Made by a program: the position numbers and the translations under genes. From a virus: a DNA stretch of 10,875 bases. Below the pieces are notes generated by a model. The model ran no database searches and was not told the origin of the DNA. It saw nothing but the letters and a program-made list of their open reading frames with translations. This document shows, piece after piece, positions 168-10,875 of the stretch (within the stretch, counting starts at the first letter, position 1; each line of letters starts with the position of its first letter). The stretch is from UHGV virus genome UHGV-0301773, one strand, 5' to 3'.

Positions 168-1265
168 TCAAGAGGTCTTATTTCTGCTCCTTTGGAGCTC
201 TTCAAAACGATTATGTAAAGATTTCGGATACAGTTCGGTATATACCTGCCATAGCACGTTTAATGAACGATGCCCTGTGACCTGGGCGACTTCCTCAATA
301 CTAAAACCAGCCTCAAATAAGCGACTTGCCCCTTCTCTACGCAAATCATGGTATCGCAGATCCTTAATACCTAATTTGCTTCTTACCCTCTGAAATCCCG
401 CAGTAACAGAAGTGCTGTTATATGGAAAAATGAATTCCGATTTTTTGGGCTGTCGTTGGACGATATCCCAGGCTTCCCCAAGCAAGGCTACTTTCATGTG
501 GTTGCCTTCCTTTTTGCGTGGATCTTTCCTGTCTCTTACGAGTATAGATTTTTGTTCCTGGTCGAGATCTTCCCATCGTAACCGGCATACTTCTCCGATC
601 CGCATACAGGACCACACAGAAAATTTGAGGATATCAACGAACGGAATTTTTGAGCATTTATGAGTAGATCGTTGTTGAAGGCCTTCAATGAGCATGTCCA
701 GTTCATCAGATGCTGGTCTACGATTACGACGGTTTGATTTACCAATCAAACCAAGTTTAAGTAGATATGGGCGAGCGCTTTTCGCCGGGTTTGATGTGTA
801 ATTAATTCCGTATACAGGTTTGGCCGCATCCAGAACACTGCCAAGATAACTAACATCGTGGCTGACTGTTGCTGGACCTGCACCAGCGTTGTTTCTTAGC
901 CTGCAATGTTCAATTACGTCATTTTCTGTCAGTTCAGATAGTTTGATCGCGGAGATGTCACTATCCATAAGCAGTTCCAGCACATATCTTTTAGTACGGC
1001 CTGCTTTACCTCCGGCATTTGGGTCATTTAAATATTTGTGTAGTAAGTCACGGACTGTAAGTCCGTCAACTGCATTTGATGATGGAATGCCATATAGATC
1101 TAATTCCATCACTTTCTGTGTTCCCCATGTTTTGGCATGAGCATGTTTAGGGAATGTTTTGCTTTCCCTGTAAGTGATAACACCTTTTTCTTTGATAATC
1201 ACATTACAGCGATAGCGTGGTGTGCCATCGGATTTTAGTCGTTTCTCTATGTTATAGTACGCCAT
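168..1265 (-). CDS. int: Phage integrase, tyrosine recombinase family
   Basis: 365-aa ORF; C-terminal catalytic region contains HDLRREGASRLF (H-x-x-R) and a downstream conserved tyrosine (LWQVY), with an N-terminal arm-binding-type domain; typical phage integrase length. Confidence 0.9.
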   Translation of the reverse strand: MAYYNIEKRLKSDGTPRYRCNVIIKEKGVITYRESKTFPKHAHAKTWGTQKVMELDLYGIPSSNAVDGLTVRDLLHKYLNDPNAGGKAGRTKRYVLELLMDSDISAIKLSELTENDVIEHCRLRNNAGAGPATVSHDVSYLGSVLDAAKPVYGINYTSNPAKSARPYLLKLGLIGKSNRRNRRPASDELDMLIEGLQQRSTHKCSKIPFVDILKFSVWSCMRIGEVCRLRWEDLDQEQKSILVRDRKDPRKKEGNHMKVALLGEAWDIVQRQPKKSEFIFPYNSTSVTAGFQRVRSKLGIKDLRYHDLRREGASRLFEAGFSIEEVAQVTGHRSLNVLWQVYTELYPKSLHNRFEELQRSRNKTS

Positions 1266-1284: not shown

Positions 1285-1520
1285 GGGTTCCCATAAAACG
1301 TGGGAACCTGTGCGGGAACCTAACGCGAGAAAAATAGCCTGAAATGTTCAAAAATGCACGATAATCATGAAACACAAAAAATTAATCAAACCAGCGTGAT
1401 GCCTGAAAAAACTGGTGTTTGCTGGAATTCTCGGTTTAGCATTGCTCCTATGCTCGATAGGATGTATCGTTTTTGAAAAACAATTGGTTATGTGTTTTGT
1501 GGGAGCCTATTGGGAACCTA
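1285..1520. repeat. Cluster of short GGGAACC(T) repeats upstream of int; candidate protein-binding (arm-type) sites
   Basis: GGGTTCCC at 1285-1292 (inverted), GGGAACCT at 1302-1309, GGGAACCTAA at 1314-1323, GGGAGCCTA at 1501-1509, GGGAACCTA at 1512-1520. Confidence 0.4.
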
Positions 1521-1577
1521 TCAAAAGATTTTTTGTCATAACAGTGTGAGATGCAAAACACTGTGATGGTCGCTTTG

Positions 1578-1605
1578 TTGACATCGCAACTTCTGCAGGT
1601 ATAAT
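1578..1605 (+). promoter_or_regulatory. Consensus sigma70 promoter (TTGACA-16 bp-TATAAT) for the plus-strand two-gene module
   Basis: TTGACA at 1578-1583 and TATAAT at 1600-1605, both perfect hexamers, 16-bp spacer; predicted start near 1612, about 150 nt upstream of the first gene. Confidence 0.6.
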
Positions 1606-1621
1606 TCGCCACCAATTTGTA

Positions 1622-1641
1622 ACCTGTGTATATGTACAGTC
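1622..1641. promoter_or_regulatory. LexA (SOS) box, acCTGT-N8-ACAGtc, just downstream of the module promoter
   Basis: CTGT at 1624-1627, spacer gtatatgt, ACAG at 1636-1639; positioned about +11 to +30 relative to the predicted start, suitable for repression. Confidence 0.55.
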
Positions 1642-1762
1642 ATTTGCTGGTTATAAACACAGTGAATTGCTCTTGCAATCTTCCAAAACTTTTTTGTTCG
1701 TGTTAGGTTGAGATAACAGTGATGATACTGTTTGCACATTCAGTGTAATGAGGAGGGTGGTT

Positions 1763-2236
1763 ATGTACAGTCCGGTACAAATAGCCAATAAATTCATAAC
1801 GTTGGGAAACCAACATCATAATCCTCTGACCCACATGCAACTTCAGAAGCTTACTTATATTGCCCATGGTTACTATTTAGCATTAACAGGTAAGCCTTTG
1901 CTCAATGAATGTGTCTCCGCGTGGAAGTACGGTCCAGTTATTCCTGGAATGTACGATGCTTTCAAAGACTATGGGAATAAACCTGTTACGAATGTAGCAG
2001 TAGCTCCTTTTGGTGGCATCGTTACTATGGATCCGCAAGCAGAGAGCATTATAGGGGCTGTTTATAAGTTTTACGGCTCGAAAAATGGAATTGAGTTATC
2101 AACTCTAACTCATATGCCAGGTACGCCTTGGTCACAAGCTTATAATGGTATTGGCTCGTCGATCATCTCAAATGATGCGATCAAGGCTTATTATCATGAT
2201 TTATTGAATAACCGACAGCAATGTCAGGGCCTCTGA
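1763..2236 (+). CDS. Panacea-domain (DUF4065, PanA/SocA/GepA-like) protein; putative antitoxin or immunity component
   Basis: Strong RBS AGGAGG at 1751-1756, 6 nt before ATG 1763 (the in-frame ATG at 1748 has no RBS). Motifs THMQLQKLTYIAHGYYLALTGKPLL and WKYGPVIPGMYDAFKDYG resemble the Panacea/COG3600 signature as I recall it. Confidence 0.7.
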   Translation: MYSPVQIANKFITLGNQHHNPLTHMQLQKLTYIAHGYYLALTGKPLLNECVSAWKYGPVIPGMYDAFKDYGNKPVTNVAVAPFGGIVTMDPQAESIIGAVYKFYGSKNGIELSTLTHMPGTPWSQAYNGIGSSIISNDAIKAYYHDLLNNRQQCQGL

Positions 2237-2258
2237 AAAAGTAATATTCAGGGATGAC

Positions 2259-2807
2259 ATGTCTCATAATTCAGATATCTATAAACTGATCGGAGCGGCC
2301 GCAGGTGTTGAAAATGGTCGCTCTGAAGCATCCTTAAACTCTACTGACAGTCAAGAGCAGGCTTTTGAATCCGCATTTGAGCCGTCTAATCATGAGCGCG
2401 ATGATGATTCTTCTTCAGAAAATAAGGCTATTCTGGAGGCAGAAGAGTTTGGTTCTAATACTGGTGCATTGCATGAGTTTATGCAGCAGAACAGAATGGA
2501 CAGTCTTCAAGCTCAGCTTGATATGCTCAAGTCACAAGTACGGGATAAGATAGCTGACGCAACTGGTAAAGAAATAGACAATGAGCTTCGGACAAAAATG
2601 GCCTCATTCACGGTTTGGTTTATGTCGTGTTGGTGCTTATTTGTAGCCGGAATGTTTGTATCATTTCTTATTGCTCATGAAGGAAAGCCGCCAGTTGAAG
2701 CAATCGTTGCATTACTGGGAACAAGTACAATTAGTATTGTTGGTTTGGTTGGCTTCGTTGTTAGTGGATTGTTCAAATCTAGAAAAGATGGCGATAAAGA
2801 AAAATAA
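2259..2807 (+). CDS. Two-TM membrane protein with acidic, coiled-coil-like N-terminal domain; candidate toxin/effector partner of the PanA-like protein
   Basis: 182-aa ORF starting 22 bp after the upstream stop, RBS AGGGA; acidic serine-rich N-terminus, helical central segment (LQAQLDMLKSQVRDKIAD), two hydrophobic helices near the C-terminus (FTVWFMSCWCLFVAGMFVSFLIA; AIVALLGTSTISIVGLVGFVVSGLF), basic tail. No family recognised. Confidence 0.7.
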   Translation: MSHNSDIYKLIGAAAGVENGRSEASLNSTDSQEQAFESAFEPSNHERDDDSSSENKAILEAEEFGSNTGALHEFMQQNRMDSLQAQLDMLKSQVRDKIADATGKEIDNELRTKMASFTVWFMSCWCLFVAGMFVSFLIAHEGKPPVEAIVALLGTSTISIVGLVGFVVSGLFKSRKDGDKEK

Positions 2808-2825
2808 CCCGTATATACACGGGTT
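2791..2825 (-). terminator. Rho-independent terminator between the convergent module and the leftward early operon
   Basis: Perfect 7-bp stem AACCCGT (2806-2812) / ACGGGTT (2819-2825) with 6-nt loop; on the minus-strand transcript the hairpin is followed by AUUUUUCUUU. Weaker U-tract in the plus direction. Confidence 0.6.
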
Positions 2826-2840
2826 ATTCATGGTCTTAGT

Positions 2841-3113
2841 TTAGTTATATTTTTGTTTATCCGTTCTGACCTTTTCCCACTCAGCTCGTCCTTCTTCTCG
2901 TCTTTTGTCTATGTATTCCGCAAGATCCTGAATATTGATGCAACGTTTTGCTTTTTGTGATGTGCCGATGCGATATGTTGGAACGGGCAACTTACAAGCG
3001 TTTGCTTTTGCTTCTGCCGTGGCTGGACTCATGCCAAAGTACTTTTGGCTAACTGCTGAGAGTTCAATGTTAGGGGTATTGAATTCAGCCATCAGTAAAA
3101 ACAAGGTGTTCAT
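2841..3113 (-). CDS. Excisionase-like small DNA-binding protein (Xis/PrtN-type), tentative
   Basis: Last gene of the leftward operon, next to the int region; probable start ATG at 3113 with RBS GGAG 6 nt upstream (track ORF extends to a GTG at 3140). About 90 aa and basic; family assignment from memory only. Confidence 0.55.
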   Translation of the reverse strand: MNTLFLLMAEFNTPNIELSAVSQKYFGMSPATAEAKANACKLPVPTYRIGTSQKAKRCINIQDLAEYIDKRREEGRAEWEKVRTDKQKYN

Positions 3114-3149
3114 AATTTTCTCCATCAAAACCGGCTGCACCCGGGAAAA

Positions 3150-3722
3150 TCATAATTCTGTGCTGGTGGCAGGAATTAATTTCTGCCAGATAGCGGAAAC
3201 ATATTTTGCCTGATGACGGGCATCAGCCAGGGCGTTGTGCCGTTCGCCATCGAAAGGCATGTCCATTTTGGGGTCGAATCCGATGGAACGCCCAAGCGTA
3301 ACGATCGTGCGTACATCGTGGTCATTCCAGTACGCCCACGGGCAGATTTGTCCTGCTCGCTCGTAAGCTCCACGTAAAATTACGTTGTCGAAGGTGGCCC
3401 CGTTACCCCAGACTTTTAAATATTTTGTATTGTCTGCATGCTGATTAATGAAATGGCTCAGTTCAGAGAGTGCATCGCTGATCGACAAAGTATCATCAAT
3501 ACATATTGCAGCTCGTGCTTCAGAGCTCTGTTTCAACCACCACAGGATGGTATCGCCGTCAGGTGTAGCTCCTTGCTTCATAGCACTGTCCAAGCTGACA
3601 ACCGTATAGAATTCTTGTCCGATGTCTCCTGTTTCTAGGGTGAAGAACACCGCGCCAATGGAAACGATCGGCGCGTCCTTATTTTTCCCCATCGTCTCAA
3701 GGTCGATCATTAAGTTGTTCAT
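3150..3722 (-). CDS. DEDDh-type (DnaQ-like) 3'-5' exonuclease
   Basis: ATG at 3722 overlaps the upstream stop (TGATG) with RBS GGAGG; motifs MIDLET (D-x-E), GNGATFD and HNALADA (H-x4-D) are typical of DEDDh exonucleases. Confidence 0.8.
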   Translation of the reverse strand: MNNLMIDLETMGKNKDAPIVSIGAVFFTLETGDIGQEFYTVVSLDSAMKQGATPDGDTILWWLKQSSEARAAICIDDTLSISDALSELSHFINQHADNTKYLKVWGNGATFDNVILRGAYERAGQICPWAYWNDHDVRTIVTLGRSIGFDPKMDMPFDGERHNALADARHQAKYVSAIWQKLIPATSTEL

Positions 3723-4432
3723 CACTTCACCTCCTGCGGCGGTTCCGGTAGCGGCATCCAGTGAGTTGCTTGCTCAATACCATTACCCGGCTTAATCGTT
3801 GCATCTCCGCGCCGAAAGGTGCTTCCGGTATAGCGTGCGGAGCATATTAGCGGTTCAACCAGAGAGCTATCGAAATTCACCGAAATAAGCACGTTCTGGC
3901 CCTTTTCAGGCATTCGATCACTACAGCTTATCCAACTATCCGGAGTTACCGGAGAGTTGCCATTTACATCGAAGTTTGGCTCTGCGTCCTGAACCAGGAG
4001 GATGTAACCATTCTTGGCAGTATCAAGTTCTAACGCCTCGGTGACGGTGCCGAAATAGCGATTACCTAAATCAGCATCACAAGTGCTTACATCAATGGAA
4101 ACTTCCATGCCTTCGATTAATTCTGGCAAGTTGTAAGTTTGGTTTACAGGTTGGCCTCCCTGAAGCATGGCGGCGCGGTGACACCAGATAATCCAGCCAA
4201 GCGCCATATCCCATGCCATGTATTCTCTATCACCATTTTTCGCCCTGCGGCGATCTACAGATTCCCCGAAACGCTTCTCCATAAATAATTCATAGGCTGC
4301 TCGTTCATCCGATACTGCTGCCAGTGATGCCAGTGCAATTCGTGCCAGTTCCATTTGTTCGCCACGGGTAAGCCCGTTTTCAAGCGGATTTTTAATGAAT
4401 AATTCGATACGTTCTTTGGTAATAGAATTCAT
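3722..4432 (-). CDS. DUF551-domain phage protein with long N-terminal extension
   Basis: 236-aa ORF, RBS AAGGTG; C-terminal region WISCSDRMPEKGQNVLI...ATHWMPLPEPP resembles the DUF551 signature. Confidence 0.75.
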   Translation of the reverse strand: MNSITKERIELFIKNPLENGLTRGEQMELARIALASLAAVSDERAAYELFMEKRFGESVDRRRAKNGDREYMAWDMALGWIIWCHRAAMLQGGQPVNQTYNLPELIEGMEVSIDVSTCDADLGNRYFGTVTEALELDTAKNGYILLVQDAEPNFDVNGNSPVTPDSWISCSDRMPEKGQNVLISVNFDSSLVEPLICSARYTGSTFRRGDATIKPGNGIEQATHWMPLPEPPQEVK

Positions 4433-8379: not shown

Positions 8380-9033
8380 TCAAAAATCCATTATTACTTG
8401 TTTGACAAGACCAACTATTCTGCAGTTCTCACCGCATTCAATAGTTTTATAGTTAGGATTTAGTGGGACGAGATACCTGTTCGGCCAGTCCTCAACAAAT
8501 TTTTTGAGTGTCGCTTCTTGCCCACCATTGATATGGGCAACAACGATTTTTCCGTTAATACACTCTGTATCAATAATATCTGGCTCTACGATAACGATAG
8601 AACCTTCTGGTATCGATGGTGAGCCGAGGGGATTGGTCATTGAATCACCACGGACCCGTAGTGCAAATGCCATTTCTGATACAAGGGCGGTAGTATAAAC
8701 CCACTCTTCAGCATCTTCTTTCCTGACACCAGGCTCCGTCATTGTCCATGAACCCGCCTGAACCCACGAGATGAGGGGGACTTTTTTAACTGCGAATATT
8801 TCAGGTTTTAGATTTATCTTTGGTTCAGGCGAGCCTTTTCCGCTAACAAGCCACAGAGGATCGCATTTAAGTGCGTTGGCTAGGGCTTGAAGGTTGGCTC
8901 CATTTGGTTGGTAGTCGTCCTTTTCCCATCCAGTAACCGTGACACGGTTCACACCAGTCAAATCAGCCAGTGCTTGTTGTGTCAGGTTCAGTTCTTTTCG
9001 CCTTTGGCGAATACGATCACTCATGTTCATCAT
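8380..9033 (-). CDS. cI: cI-like prophage repressor: N-terminal XRE-type HTH plus C-terminal S24 (LexA-like) self-cleaving peptidase domain
   Basis: HTH region RIRQRRKELNLTQQALADLTGVNRVTVTGWEKD; C-terminal domain with RVRGDSM (Ser nucleophile) and EATLKKF (Lys general base); start at 9033 or 9024, overlapping an operator. Confidence 0.9.
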   Translation of the reverse strand: MMNMSDRIRQRRKELNLTQQALADLTGVNRVTVTGWEKDDYQPNGANLQALANALKCDPLWLVSGKGSPEPKINLKPEIFAVKKVPLISWVQAGSWTMTEPGVRKEDAEEWVYTTALVSEMAFALRVRGDSMTNPLGSPSIPEGSIVIVEPDIIDTECINGKIVVAHINGGQEATLKKFVEDWPNRYLVPLNPNYKTIECGENCRIVGLVKQVIMDF

Positions 9034-9938: not shown

Positions 9939-10875
9939 ACAGTTTAACGGCAAATAACCGTTTGTCGCAACAGCTGGTGGTCAGCGTCGCTGAACACCTG
10001 TTGTTACGGCATGAATGCAGATTACCAAATCACCTGGCTGTAAGTAACCACAGAGAACTTTACCTGACTGTGGGGGGCGAGTTGTGCAGGAACTTAACCG
10101 CTGGTTTCGTGACGGAAGAGGACTTTATGTTCATGTTATTCGTTGGGAGCCAGAAACACAGCGCGTTATCTATCTTCGCAAAGACTACCCGCATGAGTGC
10201 TTTAGTCCTTTGTGGAAATTCAGGCGTGATTTTGTTGAGTGTGAAGGACCACCAGCACATTGATTCTGCCATTCCGGGACGTTACACTGTTCAGGCACCT
10301 TATAAAGCGGGTGCCGGGATTGGCGTCCTGAAATTGATTACTGAGCATAACCGCGCTCATGCGGTTTTTTCGTGTCATGAGCATTGCTACGCCCAAATTA
10401 TGGTGGGGCGTACAGGGCCGACTTCGGTCGGGCCGGGTTCGGTAGTCTCCGGTAACGCCAACCCTGTACGTCTCACCACCTCTGTGATTGGCGTCCCATG
10501 TGGTGAGTTTTCTAAAAAACTGACTACCGGGGCTGTCACCATGACTACTCTCCCAACCCTCTCTCAACCTGAAATTGCCATCGTTGATGGTCAGGCTGTT
10601 ACATCTTCTTTGGCTGTTGCTGACTTCTTCTCTAAACGTCATGACGATGTTCTGAAAAAGATCCGCATTTTGGATTGTTCTCCAGAGTTTTGTGCCCGCA
10701 ATTTTGCGGAGACATCAATTTTGGTACGCCAGCCCAACGGCGGTACTCGCAAACTTCCTTGCTATCAAATAACCCGCGACGGCTTTGCGTTTCTTGCTAT
10801 GGGTTTCACGGGTAAACGTGCTGCCCAGTTCAAAGAGGCATACATCAATGCCTTTAACCAGATGGAGAAACAGCT
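9935..10875 (+). CDS. Long open reading frame, 3' partial, carrying a Rha-family phage regulatory domain from about 10541; 5' boundary unresolved
   Basis: ATG at 9935 overlaps the upstream stop (ATGA); frame stays open to the window end (more than 310 codons). From ATG 10541 the translation MTTLPTLSQPEIAIVDGQAVTSSLAVADFFSKRHDDVLKKIRILDCSPEF...ITRDGFAFLAMGFTGKRAAQFKEAYINAFNQME matches the Rha signature as I recall it. Missing from the ORF track because it has no stop in the window. Confidence 0.5.
   Translation, partial: MNSLTANNRLSQQLVVSVAEHLLLRHECRLPNHLAVSNHRELYLTVGGELCRNLTAGFVTEEDFMFMLFVGSQKHSALSIFAKTTRMSALVLCGNSGVILLSVKDHQHIDSAIPGRYTVQAPYKAGAGIGVLKLITEHNRAHAVFSCHEHCYAQIMVGRTGPTSVGPGSVVSGNANPVRLTTSVIGVPCGEFSKKLTTGAVTMTTLPTLSQPEIAIVDGQAVTSSLAVADFFSKRHDDVLKKIRILDCSPEFCARNFAETSILVRQPNGGTRKLPCYQITRDGFAFLAMGFTGKRAAQFKEAYINAFNQMEKQ

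Follow-up and report, generated by a model that had tools for sequence, protein, structure and literature searches.

The viral genome UHGV-0301773, analyzed here as a window of 10,875 nucleotides that represents the whole stretch, carries beside its phage attachment site (attP) a two-gene, plus-strand cassette. On the identity of the encoded proteins, this module is the published PanA/PanT pair of E. coli, a type II toxin–antitoxin (TA) system that is already known. With a probability of roughly 0.7, we read the cassette as this known pair, PanAT(Esc. col.), carried as swappable cargo next to attP and placed under predicted control by LexA. The new part is the candidate SOS control, together with the recurrence of the pair near phage SOS genes, which is apparently unreported: neither LexA nor SOS is mentioned in the PanA papers of Kurata et al. 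2022 and Ernits et al. 2023, and searches of full texts pairing LexA or SOS with DUF4065 or Panacea returned nothing relevant.

An earlier reading of this DNA, made from its letters alone (hereafter the original prediction), had proposed a candidate TA or abortive-infection module. Because both proteins are identical to an experimentally validated pair, the TA half of that proposal is now more than supported. The gene panA (1763–2236, plus strand) encodes a soluble, stand-alone Panacea-domain antitoxin of 157 amino acids (aa), 100% identical to WP_000287252.1, and panT (2259–2807, plus strand) encodes a membrane toxin of 182 aa that matches WP_000019185.1 at 100% identity (182/182). In Table 1 of Kurata et al. 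2022 (PNAS; PMC8832971), the two accessions are listed together under ‘Escherichia coli STEC O31’ as PanA(Esc. col.)/PanT(Esc. col.). In that work, PanT expression stops growth and halts transcription, translation and replication together; the inner membrane is depolarized and SYTOX Green enters, which was taken as large-pore formation, and co-expression of PanA restores growth (Table 1 and Fig. 5 therein). The novelty that the original prediction had implied for the module is accordingly lost. RefSeq gives gene 1 the name WP_000287252.1 in every lysogen inspected, gene 2 of strain STEC1588 is WP_000019185.1, and the record of phage PhiR47_1 already labels the two genes ‘PanA antitoxin’ and ‘PanT toxin’. 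A literature search turned up no paper behind the latter record.

Domain and topology analyses of the two proteins point the same way as these identities. The Panacea domain that had been suspected in gene 1 gives a clear Pfam match (PF13274 SocA_Panacea, 66.2 bits versus a cut-off of 25.7, profile positions 1–112 of 113), and hydropathy analysis found no transmembrane (TM) segment in PanA. Gene 2, described earlier as an unassigned two-TM protein, does contain two hydrophobic segments by hydropathy (∼116–139 and ∼148–172). From an acidic, disordered N-terminus, PanT passes through a long helix to a two-TM hairpin. Its first 115 aa carry a net charge of −12, and the C-terminal TM2 is near-invariant across the family. 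Charge, the two hydrophobic segments and TM2 all conform to the tested trait of PanT cluster T3 (membrane toxins). An AlphaFold model of PanT, of low overall confidence (predicted local distance difference test [pLDDT] 57), has a disordered N-terminus and a long helix that continues into TM1; pLDDT values for TM2 are in the 70s–80s, and block means over the helical hairpin are ∼67–84. The two genes are separated by 22 nt (2237–2258). The ribosome-binding site of panA, GAGGAGG (1750–1756, plus strand), is strong, and RefSeq concurs with a start at 1763; that of panT, AGGGA, is weak. Among related loci, panA lies directly 5′ of panT wherever there is enough upstream sequence and a PanT open reading frame (ORF) recognizable by sequence, over a range of 34–100% PanT identity; panA alone was picked up in three distant loci from metagenome-assembled genomes (MAGs), L018, L019 and L021. 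By its Panacea domain and its adjacent two-gene architecture, then, the module is a member of the PanAT family.

The Panacea domain is also common to SocA, the antitoxin of the type VI system SocAB, and a SocAB-type mechanism, in which PanA would be a ClpXP adaptor that destroys its toxin, has in its favor that the best NCBIfam match of PanA is SocA_antitoxin (NF047745). The score of this match, 96.8, is far under the equivalog cut-off of 190, and the SocA assignment was therefore rejected. Neutralization by the PanAs tested is independent of both ClpXP and Lon (PMC8832971), and PanT is unrelated to SocB. We consider this mechanism close to refuted.

The location of the pair was analyzed by comparison with sibling phages that likewise target dusA, mEp460 and SKA5. 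Homology with these siblings stops after GGGAACC, at ∼1518. They have int, attP and xis in common with the window, and unrelated plus-strand cargo between attP and xis. The presence of different cargo between the same attP and xis indicates that ∼1519–2835 (plus strand) is a swappable cassette, whose boundaries, defined by loss of homology to mEp460/SKA5, are approximate, with the right edge roughly placed. This result speaks for the autonomous accessory module envisaged in the original prediction. The alternative cargo consists of hypothetical plus-strand genes without LexA boxes, at 2706–3609 in mEp460 (locus L084) and 2813–4014 in SKA5 (L085), and the attP–xis slot behaves as a cargo hotspot.

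All sequence features named in the original prediction were found at its coordinates, and the opposite orientation of the pair was borne out. It is the sole plus-strand unit from the tyrosine integrase gene int (168–1265, minus strand) to the S24-type cI-like repressor gene (8380–9033), the latter being the far end of the minus-strand early-left genes. These begin, on the cassette side, with a PrtN/excisionase-family gene (xis; 2841–3140, minus strand) and a 3′–5′ exonuclease gene (3150–3725, minus strand), with more early-left genes beyond. The placement of the pair between int and xis needs to be qualified: the pair does sit there, but attP and a phage-borne surrogate for the 5′ end of dusA, encoded at 1354–1476, separate int from panA. 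Alignment with lysogens puts the attP crossover, where host and phage sequence merge, at ∼1448–1456. On this alignment, the window is the attP (excised/phage) form of a dusA-integrating lambdoid phage. The dusA-targeting integrase system is that of Farrugia et al. 2015 and has been described for phage 1720a-02 (PMC6328086).

Gene order in lysogens is host zur, DUF2713, truncated dusA′, panA, panT and xis, with int at the other end of the prophage. Since attP and the dusA surrogate lie between int and panA, integration leaves the cassette at the end opposite int, right after the truncated host dusA. This truncated gene, presumably with its promoter, is directed into panAT, so readthrough is possible. 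Among dusA-integrated prophages and phages, the region matches Stx2d phage 1720a-02 (Stx, Shiga toxin; 99.4%) and PhiR47_1 and phiSTEC1575-Stx2k (∼96%), and the module was found in 79 of 5426 complete E. coli genomes. In the dataset of Kurata et al., the row for GCF_000281775.1 gives the order A|T, a 22-nt gap, the status ‘TA’ and, in the last column, ‘NotPhage’ (PMC8832971). Given that the cassette is prophage cargo beside an att site, its context seems to have been missed there.

The published constructs had the ORFs cloned under PBAD and Ptac, and the native promoter is outside the discussion of that study (PMC8832971). In the window, this promoter is a perfect σ70 match, as the original prediction had it (TTGACA at 1578–1583, a 16-nt spacer and TATAAT at 1600–1605, plus strand; 12/12), with transcription predicted to start near 1612. 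By arithmetic, ∼0.004 perfect matches are expected in 10.9 kb, and the promoter is invariant across eight aligned loci. The CTGT-N8-ACAG box noted earlier is present at 1624–1639 (CTGTGTATATGTACAG), and two additional LexA-type boxes that had been missed, at 1645–1664 and 1726–1745, bring the number in the leader to three. We scored these with a symmetrized LexA weight matrix built from an uncurated set of 30 E. coli boxes, which is a limitation of the scores. Box 1 (1622–1641, ACCTGTGTATATGTACAGTC; about +11 to +30) scores 17.4 bits; box 2 (TGCTGGTTATAAACACAGTG), centered 23 bp from box 1, scores 19.7 bits, the highest of the three; and box 3 (TACTGTTTGCACATTCAGTG), immediately before the panA ribosome-binding site, scores 17.6 bits. 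With the same matrix, known E. coli LexA boxes score 12.3–27.4 bits, a range that includes the leader boxes, which are of mid-strength and not near-perfect. In form, the leader boxes agree with the palindrome of E. coli-type LexA sites (CTGT-N8-ACAG-type, with an AT-rich spacer).

Matches of this quality are rare. At a threshold of ≥17 bits, the window contains five, compared to 0.025 expected from 200 dinucleotide shuffles; three are those in the panA leader, and the other two lie upstream of the phage dinI gene. CTGT-N8-ACAG sites number 4, compared to 0.14 expected (none of the 200 shuffles reaches 4), and CTG-N10-CAG sites number 9, compared to 2.6 expected. A search of the window for the 20-mer LexA consensus with up to three mismatches found none. 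The CTGT-N8-ACAG site at 10038–10053 was rejected as a LexA box; it scores <8 bits, lies within an ORF that runs off the window end, and is probably due to chance. For temperate phages, control of DinI-like genes by LexA is accepted, PhiKO2 being the cited case (PMC7556043). At the panAT promoter, LexA is predicted to bind the leader boxes, and DNA damage to induce transcription.

The dinI-like gene of the window is on the minus strand, with its 5′ end at 1–112 (cut by the window edge). Its two strong LexA boxes, at 120–139 and 148–167, come directly past the int stop codon, and LexA boxes thus precede genes at both prophage ends.

Other elements of the leader were also considered. Three stretches, 1537–1568, 1655–1665 and 1716–1733, contain repeats. 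An 11-nt inverted repeat (CATAACAGTGT / ACACTGTGATG) is situated just 5′ of the −35 hexamer; the motif AAACAC(T/A)GTGA occurs three times; and a perfect 6+6 inverted repeat, AACAGT-N6-ACTGTT, precedes the ribosome-binding site and is kept in an Enterobacter locus, L009 (∼2463–2480). Neither these inverted repeats nor the AAACAC(T/A)GTGA motif is LexA-type, the half-sites being in the order ACAG...CTGT. A riboswitch or attenuator in the leader (1700–1770) was rejected, as structure there is no greater than in shuffled sequences (z = +0.5), and Rfam returned no RNA family over 1400–2900. A minus-strand promoter-like site directed towards int (1749–1722, 9/12) was dismissed because such matches are at chance level (4 found versus 4.6 expected) and because lysogens have int at the opposite end of the prophage.

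Comparison with other loci assigns the boxes to the PanAT cassette, as distinct from the slot, since no LexA-type box was found near the alternative cargo of mEp460 and SKA5, where only the dinI boxes score. In Enterobacter L009, the PanT of which is 67% identical, a homologous promoter (TTGACT-16-TATAAT) precedes the module, and a counterpart of box 1 (TACTGTATGTATGAACAGTG, 22.1 bits) follows it with the same spacing; box 2 is not conserved, and box 3 is broken by a 6-nt insertion. In Salmonella, box 3 has an aligned counterpart (AACTGTAACTTTATACAGTA) at −33 relative to panA. Both the Enterobacter and the Salmonella boxes are kept amid divergent flanking DNA. The close relatives from E. coli share ≥96% identity over the whole leader and hence are uninformative as to constraint on the boxes. 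In three more clusters (L077, L080 and L081), a box overlaps the −10 element of a promoter-like site upstream of panA, and in a fourth (L017) a box lies 247 nt upstream of panA. The interval between box and panA contains no ATG-started plus-strand ORF of ≥30 aa in L017 and L077, and only a 31–36-aa ORF in L080 and L081. The specific evidence for LexA control, all of it read from DNA sequence, is therefore fivefold: the three boxes in the window, the control provided by the slot, Enterobacter, Salmonella, and the clusters L017, L077, L080 and L081.

We then considered how widely boxes accompany panA. Loci were collected by exact-protein look-ups, one genome-contig scan and one viral-contig scan. 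The genome-contig scan yielded eight loci, of which five, being from Alphaproteobacteria or unclassified MAGs, would not be expected to have the E. coli LexA motif; the useful loci came from the viral-contig scan and the exact-protein look-ups. Dereplication of the 58 loci with ≥500 nt of upstream sequence gave 28 clusters, and 22 of these have a box of ≥15 bits within 1 kb upstream of panA. At this threshold there are 27 matches in the 27.6 kb upstream of panA, compared to 2 in 144 kb elsewhere, the 2 being the dinI boxes of the window. Box-less clusters are four Alphaproteobacteria/unclassified-MAG loci, Providencia, and a contig that breaks off just upstream of dinI; Alphaproteobacteria are expected to have another LexA motif.

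Most of the distant clusters are P2/186-like prophages. Their panAT occupies the interval from gpA to the portal gene gpQ, which Rousset et al. 2022 defined as an antiviral hotspot (PMC9122126). In these loci, a LexA box overlaps the −10 element of the promoter that drives a first ORF of ∼60 aa (phrog_698/phrog_1993) and, often, dinI. Table S5A of Rousset et al. records DinI in most P2 hotspot loci and has ‘DUF4065 + hypothetical’ among its arrangements (PMC9122126). The box thus appears to belong to a tum/dinI SOS operon beside the hotspot, which would leave any cargo downstream of it. The ∼60-aa ORFs (e.g. L023 1649–1837, L028 1863–2051, L063 2326–2508) are the first genes after the LexA-overlapped promoter. 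One of them (L075 2418–2642) weakly matches positions 5–43 of the 151-position DinI/Tum-like profile phrog_189, and these ORFs may be short Tum-type antirepressors.

A number of observations weigh against LexA control of panAT. To judge from the P2/186-like loci, much of the association seen in 22 of 28 clusters is positional and not specific to PanAT, and most P2-like panAT modules have a box-free promoter of their own (TTGATT-17-TATAAT). Providencia loci are without a box, and in Klebsiella loci boxes are found only upstream of dinI, ∼720–740 nt before panA. In the window itself, the three boxes fall between about +11 and +134, counted from the predicted start, 3′ of the −10 hexamer and not overlapping it, and each differs from the 20-nt consensus at more than three positions (at least five mismatches in every case); the scores also depend on a matrix assembled from an uncurated set of boxes. 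LexA bound downstream of the −10 element represses by acting as a roadblock, which is often leakier than promoter occlusion. For the pair as such, the PanA–PanT complexes demonstrated by pull-down are those of five other pairs, with the E. coli pair not among them (PMC8832971). No PADLOC 2.0 model matches the module, and silencing by LexA would be atypical for prophage defense genes.

Several of these points are what would be expected if the LexA-like boxes had no effect on panAT. The pair would then be constitutive in lysogens, as in a classical addiction or defense module, with the boxes arising by chance, left over as relics, or having hitch-hiked from SOS genes nearby. The position of all boxes downstream of the predicted start, their mismatches, the box-free P2-like promoters, the Providencia and Klebsiella loci, and a set of close relatives too alike to reveal selective constraint would all fit this explanation. 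It does not sit well with three boxes in 125 bp (0.025 expected per window), with box-less cargo in the same slot, with the retention of box 1 in Enterobacter and box 3 in Salmonella amid divergent flanks, or with the −10 overlap in L077/L080/L081 and the nearby box in L017, and we regard it as unlikely. Predicted LexA control hence remains our preferred reading for the window. A broader claim can be entertained at even odds: T3-type PanAT would be a genuine, conserved member of the LexA regulon of Enterobacterales temperate phages, a pore-forming TA with a protein antitoxin, silent in healthy lysogens and deployed upon DNA damage or induction, with LexA replacing autoregulation by the antitoxin and SOS forming at least part of the activating condition for stand-alone Panacea systems. 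The clearest exception among Enterobacterales is Providencia (L026/L027), where panAT is flanked by a Q-type antiterminator gene and a type I restriction–modification system.

The following scheme is consistent with predicted LexA control. One very strong σ70 promoter would read the operon, through a leader with three candidate LexA operators. As long as the lysogen is undamaged, host LexA would hold expression of the cassette at a low level, and RecA-stimulated cleavage of LexA would turn it on. The trigger would be the same signal that induces the prophage, through autocleavage of the S24-type cI repressor, and the phage dinI gene. Ernits et al. 2023 considered that Panacea is probably not a transcriptional autoregulator and may sense cues, the activating cue being unknown (PMC10440598). 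PanA contains no DNA-binding domain, which suggests that transcriptional control is supplied by host LexA and not by the antitoxin. PanA is likely to be made in excess over PanT, given the strong ribosome-binding site of panA and the weak site of panT. In two P2-like loci (L023 2975–2996 and L028 2972–2993), the stretch from the panA stop to the panT start contains a GC-rich hairpin and, after it, a T-run. This element resembles an attenuator that would lower toxin relative to antitoxin, and thus points to PanA excess too; it is absent from the 22-nt spacer of the window. PanT would act only once PanA is outrun, titrated or inactivated by some cue, and freed PanT would cause loss of membrane potential and ATP. 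The least secure step is the role of these events, for which we favor conditional suicide or de-energizing of the cell at DNA damage or prophage induction, aimed either at competing phages or at damping induction.

With respect to damping, PanT might act in a TisB-like manner, lowering membrane potential and ATP in some cells and so limiting RecA-dependent induction and killing, alongside DinI. LexA-controlled TisB is known to cut prophage induction via ATP depletion (PMC12626290). The phage dinI, with its own LexA boxes, lies across int–attP from the cassette, and in Klebsiella, Salmonella and P2-like loci dinI is immediately upstream of panAT. The linkage to dinI is largely positional in P2-like phages, however, and large pores permeable to SYTOX Green suggest killing over dormancy. 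We hold this role as a tentative possibility.

With respect to competing phages, the original prediction had raised abortive infection, which received no direct support: PADLOC 2.0 gave only noise-level matches (E = 0.014–0.017). As we would phrase such a role, PanA senses the product of a competitor phage or satellite and frees PanT, the cell dies, and LexA confines this outcome to damaged or induced cells. The distant relatives that occupy the validated P2 gpA–gpQ antiviral hotspot, beside genes for reverse transcriptase (RT), AIPR and DUF4145, fit this view, as do the listing of ‘DUF4065 + hypothetical’ as an arrangement at this hotspot, the swapping of cargo in the attP–xis slot of dusA phages, and the hypothesis that Panacea is a sensor (PMC10440598). 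Set against these are the lack of a PADLOC match, the fact that no defense phenotype was found in the papers examined, and the expectation that LexA repression leaves an uninduced lysogen unprotected. We hold this role, too, as a tentative possibility, of about the same weight as damping.

A holin/antiholin-like function, aiding or timing lysis after induction, would suit the small size of PanT, its two TM segments and the large pores it opens in the inner membrane, and PanT would be co-induced with the prophage. PanT matches no holin family in Pfam or PHROGs, though, and its long acidic N-terminal domain is unlike holins; in addition, the pair lies beside attP, outside the late lysis cassette, and the siblings lyse without it. 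This function seems quite improbable.

Downstream of the pair, a stable hairpin at 2802–2829 overlaps the panT stop codon (−13.9 and −14.6 kcal/mol for the two strands; z about −3.8). The original prediction had taken it for a terminator of the module against the convergent operon. The hairpin is present, but a U-tract follows it only on the minus-strand transcript, such that there is none for panAT. For the leftward xis operon it therefore has the form of a canonical terminator, but for panAT it is a hairpin only, and its reading as a panAT terminator was accepted just in part. Judging from this asymmetry, it probably serves mainly to end the leftward xis operon and to shield panAT from antisense transcription. 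Within panA, the minus strand contains a terminator-like hairpin and a weak promoter-like site (9/12), at 1794–1821 and 2142–2171, which could yield an antisense RNA of ∼330 nt; both elements are at chance level in our scans. Elsewhere in the window, two Rfam matches above the gathering score, isrK (10295–10371) and C4 antisense RNA (10396–10483), correspond to the P1/P7-type immunity RNAs of some lambdoid phages.

The PanA papers leave two questions, namely how stand-alone Panacea systems are controlled and activated, and what purpose they serve. A native promoter with three candidate operators offers a concrete and cheaply testable answer to the first. Recurrence beside dinI/tum genes and in prophage cargo hotspots narrows the second to events of DNA damage and prophage induction. 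Stx2d phage 1720a-02 has been used in the Citrobacter rodentium mouse model of enterohemorrhagic E. coli (PMC6328086), and as its PanT is identical, a tractable lysogen already exists. For Stx phages, antibiotics that induce SOS are of clinical relevance.

Among known systems, PanA/PanT of E. coli STEC O31, with the same proteins, gene order and 22-nt gap, is the same system. The pair PanT(D11/T12):PanA of Bartonella choladocola (Kurata 2022; Ernits 2023, PMC10440598) likewise has a stand-alone Panacea antitoxin, and its toxin has a charged N-terminal region, a helix, C-terminal TM segments and pore-forming activity; the modeled interface is between the PanA core and the toxin N-terminal region plus the pre-TM helix. 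That toxin belongs to another cluster, the homology of which to T3 is uncertain according to its authors, and, as far as examined, the Bartonella pair is not part of a LexA-boxed prophage cassette. A Panacea antitoxin is also present in Caulobacter SocAB (type VI), which differs from PanAT in its toxin, as SocB acts on the sliding clamp and is cleared via ClpXP.

In coliphage 186, the SOS operon is LexA-repressed p95–tum, and the C-terminal half of Tum is DinI-like. The LexA box, small ORF and dinI of P2/186-like loci presumably correspond to this operon, which they resemble, and there panAT is directly downstream of the LexA-overlapped promoter, the small ORF and dinI. The kinship of the small ORFs to Tum rests on the overlap with one PHROG profile. 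The window differs in that its cassette has its own promoter and boxes and resides in a lambdoid phage without tum.

With respect to regulation and target, there is a likeness to TisB/IstR-1, in which LexA, through its box, restrains a small toxin of the inner membrane; after damage this toxin brings down membrane potential and ATP, as is predicted here. TisB/IstR-1 is a chromosomal type I system with an RNA antitoxin and a toxin of ∼30 aa, whereas the window has a protein antitoxin and a 182-aa toxin on a phage. DinQ/AgrB and HokE are further LexA-controlled membrane toxins of E. coli, likewise chromosomal and of type I, with RNA antitoxins and toxins of ∼30 aa. For a type II pair, the original prediction had called LexA control unusual; it is uncommon, but not unprecedented. 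Other LexA-linked type II systems include dinJ-yafQ, yafNO and Caulobacter higBA. To these can be added higBA of IncC plasmids, a ciprofloxacin-inducible, LexA-linked system (PMC8265657). The LexA-linked type II systems have ribonuclease toxins and DNA-binding, autoregulating antitoxins, whereas PanA is without a DNA-binding domain and is paired with a membrane toxin.

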